Positions 3,172 to 17,445 of a stretch of DNA of 17,445 nt are shown here, piece after piece (the stretch's first letter is position 1; every line of letters begins with the position of its first letter). The notes under the pieces were generated by a model. It had not been told where the DNA came from. It ran no database searches and saw only the letters and a list, made by a program, of their open reading frames with translations. The DNA comes from Promethearchaeota archaeon (GTDB lineage Archaea > Asgardarchaeota > Hermodarchaeia > Hermodarchaeales > Hermodarchaeaceae): positions 1 through 17,445 of the forward strand of contig JBHLPR010000048.1 in NCBI GenBank assembly GCA_048939245.1, given 5' to 3'. A program made the position numbers and the translations under genes.

Positions 3172-3262
3172 TGGGTTAACCTCCACTGAAATACTGGCAC
3201 AGTTCACTGTCTTAACCTTAAGAGCTTTTCGAGCGCACAATCGAAAGCCTAATGTCCACAGG

Positions 3263-4813
3263 TTATTCGACACCCAACAGGCCACGCATCATCGGATGCA
3301 TCTCACCTAACTGCTCCTTCGCTAAGATCTCGAAATACTGCCGCATAATGCCGACGGATAGTAATATCCCTATGCCGGTGGTGAGGGCGCCGAGAAAGTC
3401 AGCGAAGGCGGCGAGGGCGCCGACAATGATTCCACCGAGGATGGCCACGGTGGGGATGTAGCGGTTGAGGATTTTTTCGATAACTTGGGGTGATCGGCGG
3501 AAGCCGGGGACTTGCATGCCAGCGCCGATGAGTTGTCGGGAGACGTCACGGGGTGAGATACCGGAGACATCGATCCAAAGGCGAGCGAAGGCAGCACAGA
3601 AGACCATGAGGAGTACAGCATAACCGATGGCTCTGACCCAGCCTATGGGAGCTCCCCCAGGGAGTGTCTCGAATAAGGAAAGGATGCCGATGGGGGGAGT
3701 GAGGAACCAGACGAAGGTGAGTGGTTCGGGGACAAGATAGTTGCCTCCACCTTCAGGAACGGCATATCGGGCGAAGATACCAAACCAGAAGTTACCTTGG
3801 AGGGCAGGAAGTTGTACCCAGAGGATTTGGGTAATGAAAAGAATATTCGCATAGAGGGCTTGGGTGAAGATTACCGGGATGTTCGAGACATAGAGAAGTT
3901 TAATGGGGTACTGTCCCCGGAAGCCACGGTAGCGGGCATATTGGAGAGGAATATTGACACGGTAGGATTCCATGAAGATAACGAGGACGAAGGTCATGAA
4001 TGTGGTAAAGAGTCCGAGCATGCTGGCTCTGGGATTTTGTGGTCTAAACCAGATGGTCACGGGGTCGGCGATGAAGCCTGTTTCATCCAGTGGATTGTAG
4101 ATTACACTTGGATCCCAGCCGTTAGCAGACCAACCACCTAGGTTTTGTAAGATAAAGGGGACGATGCCTTGATAGCCAATGGGAGCAGTGGGAATATCTC
4201 TGGTTTGGGCAAAAGAGATGGAGAACATGCCCCAGAGGATTTGGGTGCAGACGTTGGCCATGATAAAGAGGCTGACCCCGCTACCTAGACCCCACCCTTT
4301 CTGGATGGTTTCATCCATCATAATTACTACAATGCCTGCAAACATGAGTTGAATGAAGACGAGGATTGCGCCACCGTAGTCGAGCTGACTGGGAACCTGT
4401 CCGTAAGCACCGGCAAAGATGTAAGCGAAGGCTTGAAAGGCTGTCATAAATACAGCGAGAACCTTCTGGGCACCCGTATAGAGCGAACGCTGATAGGGAT
4501 CAGACATATCGACGCGGATGAGTTGGGAGCCGACGAGGAGCTGCATGATGAGGCCGGCAGTGACGATTGGGCCGATGCCGAGTTCCATGAGAGTGCCCCG
4601 TGAGGAGGCGAGGATGGTGCGGAGCCAGAAGAAGTAGTCAAAGCCTAAGTCTTGGTTAATGCCATAGAGGGGCAGGCTAGCCATGAGGAGGTACAAAACA
4701 AGGATTACTGCGGTCCAGATGAGTTTTTCACGGAAAGAGACCTTGCGGTCGGGTGCCTTGACCTCTGGCATGACGCGAATTATTGGACGTAGTGCGTTGA
4801 GAAACCGACTCAT
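3263..4813 (-). CDS. secY: Preprotein translocase subunit SecY/Sec61-alpha
   Basis: EKLIWT...LPLYG, GTLMELGIGPIVTAGLIMQLL, KGWGLGSGVSLFI, YPIKLLYVSNIP, GIGILLSV; follows rpl15. Confidence 0.98.
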   Translation of the reverse strand: MSRFLNALRPIIRVMPEVKAPDRKVSFREKLIWTAVILVLYLLMASLPLYGINQDLGFDYFFWLRTILASSRGTLMELGIGPIVTAGLIMQLLVGSQLIRVDMSDPYQRSLYTGAQKVLAVFMTAFQAFAYIFAGAYGQVPSQLDYGGAILVFIQLMFAGIVVIMMDETIQKGWGLGSGVSLFIMANVCTQILWGMFSISFAQTRDIPTAPIGYQGIVPFILQNLGGWSANGWDPSVIYNPLDETGFIADPVTIWFRPQNPRASMLGLFTTFMTFVLVIFMESYRVNIPLQYARYRGFRGQYPIKLLYVSNIPVIFTQALYANILFITQILWVQLPALQGNFWFGIFARYAVPEGGGNYLVPEPLTFVWFLTPPIGILSLFETLPGGAPIGWVRAIGYAVLLMVFCAAFARLWIDVSGISPRDVSRQLIGAGMQVPGFRRSPQVIEKILNRYIPTVAILGGIIVGALAAFADFLGALTTGIGILLSVGIMRQYFEILAKEQLGEMHPMMRGLLGVE

Positions 4814-13112: not shown

Positions 13113-14309
13113 TCACTTCTTCGAAGACTTCGTAGATTTCGAAGTCTTCTCTTTCGAATCCTTGGTCTTCTTGTCCTTTTTTGGAGCCTTTGTCGTTTTG
13201 GCTTTCTTTGTAGTCTTGGCTTTGGGTTTCTCTGCCGCCTTCTTCTCTTTCGCCTTGGGCTTAGCCTCAGCTTTTTCTTTCTTCGCCTTTTTCTTGGGTT
13301 CCGCTTTTGGTTTGGCTTTAGGTTCAGCTTTCGCTTTTTTCGCCTTGGGTTTCTCTGCCGCCTTCTTCTCTTTCGCCTTGGGCTTGGTTTTTTCCTTCTT
13401 TGCCTTGGGTTCAGCTTTCAGTTTTTCGGGTTCTTTTTTCTTGGGCGGTTTCGTTTCAGGTTCCTTCTTGGGTTCCGCCTTCGGCTCCTTCGGAGCTGGT
13501 GTTTCTTCAGGTGCAGGAACCGCTTCGGGTACTGGCTCAGAGGGTGTTTCTGGTGCTTCTTCCGGAGGTTTCGGTACTTCTGGTTCAGCTGGTTCGGTCC
13601 CTTCATCCATGAACTCTTCTATCGAGGGAGCTTCTTCGATGGGTAGTTCTTCTTCGACCACTTCAATTTCCTCACCTTCGGGTGCGGGTGCAGGAACCGC
13701 TTGCACCTCAACTTCTTTGTGAACAATCACAGGATGATCCGGTGCCACAGCATCTGGTAACATGATACGGACTTGGACGCCTAACACGCCGGGTTTCATC
13801 ACCGCAAAAGCCCACCCATGACTCACGGCGCTACGAATTGGTTCACCGGTCTTAGCCACGAAGCCACTGCGGAATTTTTGATACCGAGCACGGCGACTAG
13901 TAAGTTTACCAGCGATGGAGATTTCCACGCCCTTTGCCCCAGCCCCAATGATTCGGCGAAGGACCCCATAGGCGGCACGGCGAAAGTGGTCACCACGTTC
14001 GAGCCGTTGGGCTAAGCGTTCGGCCATAATGGGACCGTTCAGTTCGGGTACTTCGACTTCATTCACTTCAATTTGGGGTGCTTCCAACCCGAAATCCTGT
14101 TCTAAGGTTTCGGTTAACGCGCGCACGGTGGTGCCCCGGCGACCAATAACCATACCGGGACGTGCCGCATAGACAACAACCCGCATCCCCAACGGGGTTT
14201 TTTGGAGGTCGACACCAGCATAACCTGCACGGCGAAGCTCCTGGCGTAAAAAGTCATTCACTTTGACTTTCAGTAATCCGCGATTGATGAAATGATCTTC
14301 TGCTGGCAT
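13113..14309 (-). CDS. rps3: 30S ribosomal protein S3 (uS3) with an acidic-then-basic low-complexity C-terminal tail of about 200 aa
   Basis: AGYAGV, RPGMVIGRRG (KH domain), LERGDHFRRA, GAKGVEISIAGKL, KPGVLGVQVRIM. Confidence 0.98.
   Translation of the reverse strand: MPAEDHFINRGLLKVKVNDFLRQELRRAGYAGVDLQKTPLGMRVVVYAARPGMVIGRRGTTVRALTETLEQDFGLEAPQIEVNEVEVPELNGPIMAERLAQRLERGDHFRRAAYGVLRRIIGAGAKGVEISIAGKLTSRRARYQKFRSGFVAKTGEPIRSAVSHGWAFAVMKPGVLGVQVRIMLPDAVAPDHPVIVHKEVEVQAVPAPAPEGEEIEVVEEELPIEEAPSIEEFMDEGTEPAEPEVPKPPEEAPETPSEPVPEAVPAPEETPAPKEPKAEPKKEPETKPPKKKEPEKLKAEPKAKKEKTKPKAKEKKAAEKPKAKKAKAEPKAKPKAEPKKKAKKEKAEAKPKAKEKKAAEKPKAKTTKKAKTTKAPKKDKKTKDSKEKTSKSTKSSKK
13222..13385. repeat. Perfect 41-bp direct repeat inside the rps3 tail (13222-13262 and 13345-13385)
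   Basis: TTGGGTTTCTCTGCCGCCTTCTTCTCTTTCGCCTTGGGCTT occurs twice, 123 bp apart, and encodes KPKAKEKKAAEKPK on the minus strand. Confidence 0.9.
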
Positions 14310-14311
14310 GT

Positions 14312-14773
14312 TTACTCCTCCGTTAAGACAATCTCAATATGCACCATCTGTTCATTGAATTTCGTCGATGAGCCCCGAGCCCGTTCAATAAAGCGCTTAA
14401 TCAGCCGACCCGGATACGATGAAATGTGCGTAATGCGGAGCCGGTCCAAGTCTAATCCCTTATAATCCGCGTTATTCTCCGCGTTTGCTAACACCCCTAA
14501 AATGACCTTCGAGGCCTTCACGGGGTACCGTCCCGAATCCGCTTTATGCAACCCCTTGCGATGCCCGACCTGCTTATCATAGCGTCGATAGGGCACCGCT
14601 TGGCGCATAGCAATCACCGCTTCAAGATAGGCTTTCGCTGCTTCCAAGCGGAGGCCACGTAATTCGTTACAAATTTCCCGCGCAGCTTTGGGGGAAATCC
14701 GAACCTCGCGTCCGCTCGCCCGAGCCGTCTTGTCGGGATCCAGACCAATGATCGAATAGCCGAAATTGGGCAT
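14312..14773 (-). CDS. rpl22: 50S ribosomal protein L22 (uL22)
   Basis: RISPKAAREIC, VPYRRY, GRYPVKA, NAENNADYKGLD, RARG, HIEIVL. Confidence 0.98.
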   Translation of the reverse strand: MPNFGYSIIGLDPDKTARASGREVRISPKAAREICNELRGLRLEAAKAYLEAVIAMRQAVPYRRYDKQVGHRKGLHKADSGRYPVKASKVILGVLANAENNADYKGLDLDRLRITHISSYPGRLIKRFIERARGSSTKFNEQMVHIEIVLTEE

Positions 14774-14903
14774 AGGGTATCCAACCTAGATGGTTACAAC
14801 ACTCACTTTGCAGGTTGCAGCAGCAAGAACGAGAATCACAGGAACCCTCGGCGCTGGTCCGCACTCCCAAACAACGTGAGAGCGAGGAGAGGGATGCCAT
14901 GTA

Positions 14904-14922
14904 CCCTATATAAGAATTCTGC
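14904..14922 (-). promoter_or_regulatory. Putative TATA-box promoter of the rpl22-led operon
   Basis: TTATATAG at 14913-14906 on the minus strand is the only strong TATA-like element in this intergenic region. It predicts a transcription start near 14884 and a leader of about 110 nt. Confidence 0.6.
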
Positions 14923-14944
14923 TCATCGCGACACCCGACAGCTC

Positions 14945-15079
14945 TTATTCTAAGACAAACGGCTTAGACCCAGTCAAAATTACCTCAGGAAGCACTTCAC
15001 GATGCTTTTGAAGAAACGCCACATCCGCCTTCTTATCCCGCCCCGAATCTGGCAACAACTCCGGAATCGCCTCCACTCG
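14945..15079 (-). pseudogene. Stranded original 3' end (44 codons plus TAA) of the trm112-like gene
   Basis: Translates as RVEAIPELLPDSGRDKKADVAFLQKHREVLPEVILTGSKPFVLE*, with 31/44 aa identical to the C-terminus encoded at 16877-16734. Homology stops abruptly at about 15080, and the 5' two-thirds of the gene is missing here. Confidence 0.92.
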
Positions 15080-16877
15080 GTAAATGCTGGCTTTGTGTGG
15101 TGTTCATAGGGCATTCACGAATAAAACTAATGGTATCCTTGAAACCAATCAATATGTGGAAACCTGAAATAGATGGAAAAGCTGTTTCAGATATTAATCA
15201 ATTGGCATCAATCATAGATCGCGAATATGCTTGCCTAAAGAAATACAAGATTTTTAACCAATTACTTTCCCATGCGAAATGTCATTTAATGCTATATCAG
15301 AAGCTATGTAAGCGACAATCACTCGAAAAAGGTGAAATTTCTCGTCTCGCTCGCGAGTTACATGTAAAAAGATTGTTGGTCTCAGCGTTTATTACAAAGG
15401 CTGGTCGACCACGACTTTACTTCTATATTCAACGATGCATATCTAAAACGAAAATATCCACTATCCTTAGAAACCTTCTAAGGCAAACCAATGGAATTTC
15501 CTCGCTGAGCAGGCTCAAGGAAAGACTTGAAACATATTTTTTTATTGACGCGCTTATTGAAAGCAGAACTTACTCACGTCACATAATCCGGTGTAAGAAA
15601 TATTTCGCAGCTCTTCGGGAACTACAGGAAGGAGGGTGTTACAAAGCTGTTTCAAAAACAGTAAAAGTGGAATATTCGAGAGTAATCTGGTGGCTTAGAG
15701 GACAGAAGCCATACTTAGTCGAGCTAGCAAGTCGAATTCCAAAAAAAGTCCCGAAAAAGGGTTACAGATGGCTACCTACTAAAATGGCCATAAATTCTCA
15801 ACCACTAAAGTTAATCGAAGTTCCTAAACAAGTGATTAAATGGAGTCAAATCTCCGCAGTAATCAAAAAGCTTAGACCATTAAAACCAACAGATAAGGCA
15901 CTGAAGATTTTCGGATCAATTTGCCCCGAGTCAGCTTTTAGCTATATTTTGGGAATCATGGTAAGTGATGCAAGTAAACATAAGGATAGTAAATCGTCTA
16001 TAAGGATCGCACTAGGATTATCTAAGAATTATTCTTGGAGTAAACGTGTTGGTAATGCAACATGCCATTATTTGGGGAGACTAGGTATTCGAGCAAAAAG
16101 GGGTAAAGACACTTCATCAAACAAAGGAGATAAATCTAGGTATTTTTGGTATTCAGAACGATCTCCGCTCATAAAATGGATTAATCAAGCCTGTTTAGGC
16201 TTAAACCCAAAACATAACACAACCAACCAAGCAATCATGGCTAATTGGCTGCTAGATGCACCTAGGTCTATTCAAATCAAGTTCTTACAAGGATTAAATG
16301 ACGGAGACGGTTATGCAAGTGTGAAGGCAAAAGCTCTTGGAAACGCATGTCCACCAAATACATTATTAGTGAAAAAAATCCTGAAGGGTCTTGATATTGA
16401 TTCTAAAGCGTATCCAGACAAACTACTAATTAAAAGAAATCAAAGTATTATCAAGGCTACAAATCTTCCATTCTTTCTTCACGCTACAGAGAGGCAAAAC
16501 AATGCCGAAAAAATTGTGAAAATGATCAAGGTGAGAAAGAAAACAGGGAATACCTTTGATGCGTTAGTACAACAAAAGATTAAGAAGTGGTCAAAAAACG
16601 GTCTTTCAAGTGGAGCAATTTCAGAACGCTTCTTCGATGAAACTGGTAAGTCATTTTCAATAACTCAAATACGATATTATGTTAACAAATTTAGAGAAGA
16701 ATAGTTGAAGAAATACAACTTCGTTACATTGAATTATTCATCCTTTGGTAACGTAAAGGGTTTGGATTCATACAGTATTATTTCAGGAAGAGTATCTTTG
16801 TGTTTCTTTAGAAAGGTTATATCCGCGTTTTTATCTCGACCTGAATCAGGAAGTAATTCGGGAATCGTTTCAACCCG
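15080..16877. mobile_element. Free-standing homing endonuclease cassette carrying a replacement 3' end of its host gene
   Basis: A visibly AT-rich block containing a LAGLIDADG ORF plus a recoded trm112 3' end. It is bounded by the point (GS^RVE) where the two copies of the trm112 tail begin. The right boundary is approximate. Confidence 0.8.
15130..16704 (+). CDS. Double-motif LAGLIDADG homing endonuclease-like protein with a long N-terminal region and a C-terminal HTH-like segment
   Basis: Motif 1 FSYILGIMVSDAS (about 15937-15975) and motif 2 FLQGLNDGDG (16282-16311), about 115 aa apart; very basic; no intein splicing motifs. Start is uncertain (GTG 15097, ATG 15130 or ATG 15154). Confidence 0.85.
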   Translation: MVSLKPINMWKPEIDGKAVSDINQLASIIDREYACLKKYKIFNQLLSHAKCHLMLYQKLCKRQSLEKGEISRLARELHVKRLLVSAFITKAGRPRLYFYIQRCISKTKISTILRNLLRQTNGISSLSRLKERLETYFFIDALIESRTYSRHIIRCKKYFAALRELQEGGCYKAVSKTVKVEYSRVIWWLRGQKPYLVELASRIPKKVPKKGYRWLPTKMAINSQPLKLIEVPKQVIKWSQISAVIKKLRPLKPTDKALKIFGSICPESAFSYILGIMVSDASKHKDSKSSIRIALGLSKNYSWSKRVGNATCHYLGRLGIRAKRGKDTSSNKGDKSRYFWYSERSPLIKWINQACLGLNPKHNTTNQAIMANWLLDAPRSIQIKFLQGLNDGDGYASVKAKALGNACPPNTLLVKKILKGLDIDSKAYPDKLLIKRNQSIIKATNLPFFLHATERQNNAEKIVKMIKVRKKTGNTFDALVQQKIKKWSKNGLSSGAISERFFDETGKSFSITQIRYYVNKFREE

Positions 16878-17240
16878 TGAACCGATTGGATAGAACCGTT
16901 GACATTTTTCGCATCTCAGTGCTCCTACCTGCACCTCTAGCCCGTGGAAGTATTCCACTAGGGGCATCAAATCTTGGGGATTTGGTTTTTTCTTCGAGAG
17001 CGCCGCAAACACTTTTCGCGCCTTGATTAACCGTTGATCAAAGACCTTCTCTTTGGACAGATTGTGCACTGGTTCTAACGATGGCTCACTCAACACGCCC
17101 CGCTGATAATGCATCACCAACTCCGCCGCTAACCCCTTCTTGTCCCGTAACCGATTCCGCTTCACATCCACCACATAGGTCGTCAACGGATGCTCCTTAC
17201 AAATCGGACACGCCAAAATATTCAACAACCACGGCTTCAC
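16734..17240 (-). CDS. Trm112-like methyltransferase activator (zinc-binding, long form, 168 aa)
   Basis: (M)KPWLLNILACPICKEHPL...EVQVGALRCEKCQRFYPI...IPELLPD..RD...FLKKH...KPF. GTG at 17240 behind GAGGTG. Confidence 0.87.
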   Translation of the reverse strand: MKPWLLNILACPICKEHPLTTYVVDVKRNRLRDKKGLAAELVMHYQRGVLSEPSLEPVHNLSKEKVFDQRLIKARKVFAALSKKKPNPQDLMPLVEYFHGLEVQVGALRCEKCQRFYPIGSRVETIPELLPDSGRDKNADITFLKKHKDTLPEIILYESKPFTLPKDE

Positions 17241-17280
17241 CGACAGCACCTCAATACGCAAAGTGTGTACCCAACCTACA

Positions 17281-17302
17281 CTTAATAAAACTGCCTTTTT
17301 TC
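17281..17302 (-). promoter_or_regulatory. Putative BRE/TATA promoter of the trm112-like gene
   Basis: Minus strand AAAAAAGGCAG-TTTTATTAAG, about 40 nt upstream of GTG 17240. A short inverted repeat AAGTGT/ACACTT (17261-17283) lies just downstream. Confidence 0.55.
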
Positions 17303-17370
17303 AGACGCCTTTGGACACTGCTCTCATCAAAAAATGGATATCGACTCTTTAAGGATTTAAGTAGTAGATT

Positions 17371-17445
17371 CTATGACGACTCATGCACTTTCTCAGAGTC
17401 TGCCAAAGTTATTCTCTGGTTACGTCGAATCCAATACACATAAGC
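17371..17445 (-). CDS. Possible 3' end of an upstream gene (partial, product unknown)
   Basis: Open frame AYVYWIRRNQRITLADSEKVHESS* from the window edge, resembling the end of a TM helix followed by a basic tail. Too short to be sure. Confidence 0.3.
   Translation of the reverse strand, partial: AYVYWIRRNQRITLADSEKVHESS

Follow-up and report, generated by a model that had tools for sequence, protein, structure and literature searches.

A free-standing LAGLIDADG endonuclease gene with a substitute gene end: a probable homing element in the trm112-like gene of a Promethearchaeota genome

The window analysed here is a stretch of 17,445 nucleotides, contig C44 of a metagenome-assembled genome (2.52 Mb, 44% GC) of Promethearchaeota, a Loki-type Asgard archaeon. 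Our results suggest that the 3′ part of its trm112-like gene has, in all likelihood, been the homing target of a mobile element of about 1.8 kb (positions 15080-16877, with probable co-conversion to around position 16937). Judged from its sequence, the element consists of a free-standing LAGLIDADG endonuclease gene and a divergent version of the final 47 codons of trm112. The endonuclease gene lies on the opposite strand, past the stop codon of an intact trm112 frame of 175 codons, and neither an intron nor an intein is needed. An earlier note on this DNA had proposed that the end now attached to trm112 came with the element, that the native end of the gene persists as an orphan, and that the divergence between both ends confers immunity on the target site.

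Architecture of the invaded locus

The trm112-like gene (17261 to 16734, minus strand) encodes a protein that matches the Pfam family Trm112p (PF03966; E 2e-9; 37.7 bits versus a cut-off of 22) and contains both cysteine pairs of the zinc ribbon, namely CPIC at residues 18-21 and CEKC at residues 117-120. The product misses the equivalog level of the NCBIfam model Trm112_arch (40 bits versus a cut-off of 77) and comprises an insert of about 90 residues as well as a tail of about 47 residues; therefore, trm112-like is the safe name, shortened to trm112 in the following. The true start is probably the GTG at position 17240, in line with the MKPWLL start of the relatives.

The native 5′ part of the gene (16938-17261, minus strand, codons 1-108) shows 81% DNA identity to the related loci L007, L008 and L009. 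The gene ends with the attached replacement tail (16877 to 16734, minus strand), which comprises 47 codons and a TAA stop codon in frame with trm112 and retains 19/19 invariant tail residues of the trm112 family. A spacer of 29 bp (16705-16733) separates the converging stop codons of trm112 and the endonuclease gene (15097-16704, plus strand). The leader of the latter (15080-15153, plus strand) has its outer end at 15079/15080, the fixed junction of the element. Directly beyond this junction lies the orphan native tail (15079 to 14945, minus strand), an open frame of 44 codons and a TAA stop codon that lacks a start codon, followed by the uL22 gene (14312-14773, minus strand; NCBIfam uL22_arch_euk, E 2e-55), the conserved downstream neighbour of trm112, which served as synteny anchor. 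The GC content is 0.37 in the endonuclease gene versus about 0.5 in the flanks. The same arrangement is present in the public assembly GCA_016550425.1, which is 99.45% identical over 2716 bp (window positions 14730-17445); none of the 15 differences is located within the endonuclease gene or either tail.

The two tails resemble each other far more than chance would allow (tblastn E 7e-21). Of 44 aligned codons, 31 encode identical residues, 21 of these with a different codon, and 85 of the 132 nucleotides agree. Within the first 16 codons after the junction 15 residues are identical and 12 of these are recoded, and the orphan contains 22 codons ending with G, the attached tail 6 (of 44 each). 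The residue and codon counts reproduce exactly those given in the earlier note. Synonymous divergence (dS) between the tails is saturated, as between genera, at a nonsynonymous divergence (dN) of 0.24, and the longest run of identical nucleotides shared by both is 8 nt.

The attached tail had been described as heavily recoded. Taken as a whole, it is no more recoded than tails are between species: among pairs of native alleles with 29-33 identical residues, 23% are recoded to the same extent or more. For the 16 codons next to the junction the description holds: in the 36 native pairs with 14/16 or more residues retained, recoding averages 42% and stays below 80% throughout; these pairs are mutually related and thus represent a soft control. 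Compared with the rest of the same tail, the recoding close to the junction (12/15 versus 9/16) is not significantly increased (Fisher p = 0.25).

The endonuclease

The longest frame of the endonuclease gene comprises 535 aa; however, the start is likely the ATG at position 15154, which yields a protein of 516 aa and agrees with the public record P0003. Helical modules make up the N-terminal part of about 270 aa, and the nuclease core is located in the C-terminal part. Here, two motifs are present, ILGIMVSDA (D291) and LQGLNDGDG (D404), and both aspartates are invariant in 17 homologues. The frame and the catalytic residues of this double-motif enzyme are intact.

The Pfam model LAGLIDADG_3 is matched marginally and by the second motif only (23.0 bits versus a cut-off of 22.5), an NCBIfam search with the protein gave no match, and a comparison of the family profile with the sequences of the PDB revealed nothing relevant. 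An AlphaFold model based on 17 homologues (predicted local distance difference test, pLDDT, 90.1) shows the pseudo-dimeric alpha-beta-beta-alpha-beta-beta-alpha fold. In a Foldseek search its C-terminal half matched I-DmoI with target-normalised template modelling (TM) scores of 0.62-0.67; PI-SceI, I-Tsp061I and I-SceI were retrieved as well. As the non-catalytic relative WhiA was matched too, the fold alone is no proof of activity. For membership in the LAGLIDADG family, the predicted fold is stronger evidence than the Pfam match.

The orphan as the native end of trm112

We compared the locus with trm112 homologues from 13 genomes of the same genus and family, in 12 of which the contig extends past the stop codon. 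All 12 have an empty site, where trm112 is followed by uL22 without an endonuclease gene, and the gap between both genes measures 150-190 bp, with one exception of 435 bp. Likewise, ten metagenome contigs show trm112 directly before uL22 and lack the endonuclease gene. The distance between the orphan stop codon and uL22 is 171 bp, and the corresponding distance at the empty sites of the three nearest relatives (L007-L009) is 166-170 bp. Moreover, the orphan shares 80-86% DNA identity with L009 (113/132), L070 (109/132) and L008 (106/132), whereas the attached tail reaches 77-90/132 (58-68%) with every relative. Synteny, the distance to uL22 and this difference in identity identify the orphan as the native trm112 end of the host, as previously proposed.

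In a maximum-likelihood tree of the tails, from which only the branch lengths and the pairing of the orphan of L096 (see below) with L010 are usable, the attached tail forms a long isolated branch (terminal branch 0.82 versus 0.12 for the orphan and a median of 0.07) and does not group with the tails of uninvaded relatives. The earlier note had in addition taken the intact orphan as a sign of recent insertion. The 44-codon frame is indeed open, which represents weak evidence for recency.

A second, diverged element at the same junction

Protein searches retrieved one homologue of the endonuclease with 53-56% identity, and all others are about 40% identical. On the corresponding 1845-bp metagenome contig (L063), the endonuclease gene is followed by a 40-bp spacer and a converging trm112 end with codons ending with A or T. 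Another metagenome contig (L096) contains, in this order, a near-identical endonuclease N-terminus together with the same leader, an orphan tail and uL22. This orphan begins at the same codon as the orphan in the window and is identical to the empty-site allele of G011 at 124/132 positions. A contig scan of the genomes with an endonuclease alignment revealed only paralogues of about 39% identity, none of them at trm112.

Both attached tails show the lowest frequency of G at third codon positions (G3) among 26 tails (0.14 each) and are mutually the best or near-best match at the DNA level. The recoded fraction between them is 0.44 versus about 0.70 for native pairs at the same protein identity. 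Over the 11 nt to the right of the junction, attached tail and orphan of the second element differ at one base, according to our own reading of the alignment. Taken together, the alignments indicate that two diverged elements share one junction in two host lineages, where the tail of the respective host became the orphan. Because the second, diverged element has the same junction and a tail of its own with A/T-ending codons, the attached tail in the window can be assigned to the element, which corroborates the earlier proposal.

Codon style of the two trm112 parts

As reference for codon style we used the 1140 long open reading frames of the genome to which the window belongs, which have a mean G3 of 0.17 and a mean frequency of G or C at third positions (GC3) of 0.40. 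With a G3 of 0.14-0.15 the attached tail is ordinary for the genome, and its GC3 of 0.28 falls within the lowest 9% of 47-codon windows; the GC3 of the endonuclease gene is 0.31. The outlier is the native trm112, with a G3 of 0.53 in the 5′ part (codons 1-108), in agreement with the G-ending style noted before, and 0.50 in the orphan; only 0.1% of the host windows reach a G3 of 0.49. Thus, the composition ties the attached tail to the endonuclease gene and is no mark of foreignness to the genome. The earlier statement that this tail is foreign in codon style is correct with regard to trm112, but does not apply with regard to the genome (G3 0.15 versus 0.17), and the foreign origin of the tail is deduced from phylogeny and synteny, not from codon style. 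A log-likelihood test of endonuclease-gene versus host codon style did not discriminate between the tails (attached tail -0.06, orphan -0.02 per codon) and was dropped as evidence. We also observed that the native trm112 sequence (16938-17261 and 14945-15079) combines a G3 of about 0.5 with a frequency of C at third positions of about 0.1, a style common to the close relatives L007-L014.

A probable co-conversion tract and the target site

The relatives begin to resemble the orphan precisely at position 15079, with the CGA codon for R129. Scans of codon usage and identity along trm112 place the start of the switch in composition near codon 109-115 and not at codon 129. G3 drops from about codon 111, and the identity to L009 is 0.81 over codons 9-108, 0.57 over codons 109-128 and 0.61 in the tail (Fisher p = 2e-4); native pairs dip over codons 109-128 as well (0.65-0.83). 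Codons 109-128 (16878-16937, minus strand), which comprise the second CxxC, end with A or T, share codons with the second element and are probably a co-conversion tract. Over codons 119-128, L063 matches at 28/33 positions (hand count from the alignment), and the last 54 nt of the tract have their best match in L063 (42/54) versus 31-41 matches in native alleles. Furthermore, both invaded alleles read RFYP, and the nearest native alleles read RWYP or RWFP.

These results bear on the target site, which the earlier note had predicted just after the second CxxC. The junction at R129 is confirmed. The left half of the predicted site (TATCCAATCGGTTC), in contrast, is probably not native but co-converted element sequence common to the second element. 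The native target is better represented by the empty sites of L008 and L009, and around the junction the hybrid allele differs from such native proxies at 7-8/22 nt. The proposed target coincides with the most conserved stretch of the protein, comprising the invariant residues G127, S128, R129 and P134-D139.

A recoded patch without an endonuclease gene

The relatives L007 (G004:C131) and L009 (G003:C19) are about 92-94% identical over more than 2 kb, except for trm112 codons of about 122-152. In this patch of about 90 nt, which spans some 21 nt left of codon 129 and some 72 nt right of it, 21 consecutive codons of L007 are synonymously changed and only four residues differ. The patch is equidistant from all other alleles and nearly devoid of G3, and L009 is native in style. 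In L007, we found no trace of the endonuclease gene. The patch is probably a scar, left either by an earlier invasion or by the repair of a break at this target. Two histories would fit: loss of the element by recombination between attached tail and orphan, or short-patch conversion repair of a cut site. The scar marks the site as a recombination hot spot, and shows that hindered excision, if real, is not absolute.

On a further contig (L078; JABAOF010079646.1, around positions 835-842), a gap of two N replaces about 16 trm112 codons exactly at the target region. Scaffolding may have broken here because of a polymorphic insertion, or the stretch may have been masked.

A model for homing and its alternatives

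We favour the following explanation for these observations. The endonuclease would cut element-free alleles within the conserved stretch around codons 125-135 (PIGS-R-V/I-E-x-IPELLPD), and repair of the break would take an invaded allele as template, the homology arms being the 5′ part of trm112 on one side and the orphan tail together with uL22 on the other. Repair would copy the substitute tail and the endonuclease gene into the recipient, the own tail of which would be pushed downstream. As the substitute tail differs at nearly every wobble position near the junction, the rebuilt gene would probably no longer be cut, and as at most 8 identical bases occur in a row, there would be little homology for deleting the element. 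Immunity to cleavage by its own enzyme, suggested by analogy, and hindered excision can thus both be reasonably inferred. The divergence of the tail may have been selected for or may simply reflect the distance of the donor lineage.

Several observations weigh against this explanation. The attached tail and the orphan of the second element were observed on separate contigs, each from its own sample. Most of the tree of the 132-nt tails lacks resolution (15 of 20 inner branches are weak). A donor lineage of the attached tail was not found; all relatives compared are at most 68% identical to it at the DNA level. In addition, the codon divergence over the whole tail lies inside the range of native species pairs and so does not demonstrate selection for recoding. 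Finally, codon style sets the attached tail apart from trm112 only and not from the genome.

It is possible, although on the unlikely side, that the architecture is as described but the recoding is not protective. The tail would then stem from a distant, AT-richer donor, and the site would be protected by its being split or by a few key bases. Such a scenario agrees with the 23% of native pairs that are equally or more recoded at similar protein identity, with the non-significant excess near the junction (p = 0.25) and with the single difference in 11 nt right of the junction in the second element. Conversely, an unchanged duplicated tail would rebuild a cuttable site, since a near-copy of the right half would come to lie beside the retained left half. 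In the first 16 codons, moreover, 80% recoding is reached by 0/36 native pairs, and all three element-derived versions, i.e. those of the window, L063 and the L007 patch, change most wobble positions near the junction. In the yeast WHO elements described below, it is the 3′ end that confers allele-specific resistance.

The remaining alternatives dispense with homing. A tandem duplication of the trm112 tail in place, with later endonuclease insertion, local divergence and no horizontal transfer of the tail, would explain that both copies encode the same conserved motifs. Yet dS between the copies is saturated and the flanking native parts are still 81-86% identical to sister species; furthermore, the second element sits at this junction in another host, where the orphan is host-specific, and the two attached tails are alike in codon choice. 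We therefore rejected this highly improbable scenario on the grounds of the saturated dS and the second element with its host-specific orphan. When a site-specific recombinase integrates an element, as with e14 and phage 21 in icd or in the case of tRNA genes, the 3′ end of the target is likewise rebuilt and a partial duplicate stays behind; an attachment site overlapping the gene end could in principle produce a similar picture. However, the 1.8-kb insert encodes the LAGLIDADG protein only; we found neither an integrase nor identical core repeats in it (longest run 8 nt), and integration of this type was likewise rejected as very improbable. Least probable of all is a chimera in the metagenome assembly. 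It would be in keeping with the frequent location of endonuclease-gene copies at contig ends, but an independent public assembly shows the identical arrangement over 2716 bp and two other metagenomes each show one junction of a related element, which led us to reject an artefact.

Relation to known homing elements

The trm112 element in our reading is a new archaeal member of the tail-swapping homing elements, a kind described before in yeasts and in the mitochondria of fungi. Its endonuclease gene has the full-length target gene, with a diverged 3′ end, on one side and a stranded native fragment on the other, and we observed empty sites in relatives (12 + 10) as well as independent occupancy in another host. 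In the literature searched, no description of a tail-swapping homing design in archaea was found.

The closest parallel are the WHO elements of Torulaspora and Lachancea yeasts, which home into FBA1 (Coughlan et al. 2020, PMC7282813). Their unit consists of an endonuclease gene and a resistance-conferring 3′ end of FBA1, and allele-specific cleavage has been demonstrated (PMC7282813). For WHO6, cleavage and resistance were shown, and conversion tracts extend 5-14 bp to one side and 106-306 bp towards the stop codon (PMC7282813). In both systems a LAGLIDADG-type gene travels with a diverged 3′ end of its target, which replaces the end of the recipient. The displaced end remains as a fragment and provides a homology arm (here proposed), and the histories of the 5′ and 3′ parts of the gene disagree. 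Likewise, element-free conversion patches occur at the site, which are asymmetric and longer towards the stop codon, represented here by L007. In contrast, the WHO proteins are intein-like with a zinc finger, act in the eukaryotic nucleus during meiosis and occur in tandem clusters, whereas the trm112 element encodes a free-standing double-motif enzyme with N-terminal helical modules, resides in an archaeal chromosome, converges on its target and is present as a single copy at the site.

A second parallel is provided by mobile endonuclease reading frames in fungal mitochondria, as described for atp6 of Allomyces macrogynus and for atp6, atp9, cox2 and nad3 of Glomus (PMC3630166). There, identity to the sister species amounts to 91-98% for the native C-terminus and 64-81% for the inserted copy (PMC3630166); the corresponding values here are 80-86% and 58-68%. 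As in trm112, a foreign C-terminus is inserted together with an endonuclease frame, and the native C-terminus lies downstream. The fungal reading frames reside in organelles, encode LAGLIDADG or GIY-YIG enzymes and are frequently in frame with their host gene or co-transcribed with it, whereas the endonuclease gene at trm112 is on the opposite strand in an archaeal chromosome.

Free-standing phage endonucleases, such as Seg and Mob of T4 and F-CphI, perform intron-less homing; according to the accounts considered here, they are usually located between genes and belong to the GIY-YIG, HNH or other families. They share with the trm112 element that they are free-standing without intron or intein, that they cut the element-free allele (here proposed) and that the flanks are co-converted (here probable). 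Unlike the trm112 element, they carry no duplicated gene end, as far as these accounts describe them.

These comparisons suggest that homing without intron or intein, by means of a spare gene end, operates in archaeal chromosomes. Such homing would explain why the two ends of one conserved gene can differ in their histories, and it provides a testable pair of enzyme and target with candidate sensitive, resistant and scarred natural alleles.

Related endonuclease genes at other loci

Five copies of the endonuclease family are present in the genome to which the window belongs, and up to ten matching places per genome were found in relatives of the same family. At an inositol-phosphate synthase-like gene, G005 (L052/L097, C212) and G006 (L098, C14) show an attached tail with A/T-ending codons, a co-oriented endonuclease gene and an orphan, and the latter matches the empty site of G002 (L099, C3). 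In G008 (L103, C1), the tail and the leader of the element are kept, but the endonuclease gene is largely deleted. At the synthase-like gene, the sites of seven relatives are empty.

At two further copies in the genome short duplicates were observed. In C51 (L002:1404-1424 and 3188-3211), the attached SGRSID-stop is repeated beyond the endonuclease start with 5/6 codons changed, and in C55 (L005:1382-1399 and 3337-3354) the six-residue repeat RFAQLL shows 3/6 changed codons. Both endonuclease copies converge on a gene end, and the short duplicate lies just beyond their start. When anchored at the stop codon, the C51 match has a chance probability of about 1e-6 by a rough calculation of our own; it did not pass a generic alignment test. 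No long flank duplications were seen at the other four endonuclease copies in the genome; the two short ones were found by stop-codon anchoring. A local-alignment scan of the flanks of 22 endonuclease copies, which very short orphans are unable to pass, was clearly significant only for trm112 and the synthase-like gene, with L039 and L047 somewhat above their shuffles.

With somewhat better than even confidence, we suggest that one LAGLIDADG family has radiated in Promethearchaeota in the form of tail-swapping elements at trm112, the synthase-like gene and probably other genes, with all stages of homing visible as intact and degenerate elements, empty sites and recoded scars. If so, scars such as the 21 recoded codons in L007 would generally give rise to mosaic core genes in archaea and could be detected as such.

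Further observations were made at these loci. In G012 and G001, the synthase-like gene shows element-style tail codons and lacks the endonuclease gene. The synthase-like gene of the genome harbouring the window is cut off by its contig end at residue 318, immediately ahead of the tail targeted in relatives. Endonuclease copies are often located a few hundred bases from contig ends (C117, C18, C119 and many in relatives), which assembly breaks at polymorphic insertions would explain. A distant member of the family (28% identity) on L045 (G052:C61) lies between two carboxylase-like gene heads, at about 1187-1453 and 3553-3819. These copies comprise the first 89 codons with 94% protein identity, i.e. 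a duplicated head and not a tail.

Other features of the window

Most of the window is occupied by an archaeal ribosomal-protein operon on the minus strand, ranging from uL22 to SecY, and the trm112-like gene is positioned upstream of uL22 on the same strand. An Rfam search of the window yielded no matches. The uS3 gene (13113-14309, minus strand) comprises 398 codons, and the family model covers only the first 220 or so. The other codons fall within a region of extreme AT skew (-0.6 to -0.9, plus strand), which suggests that the C-terminal remainder of uS3 is a long low-complexity extension.

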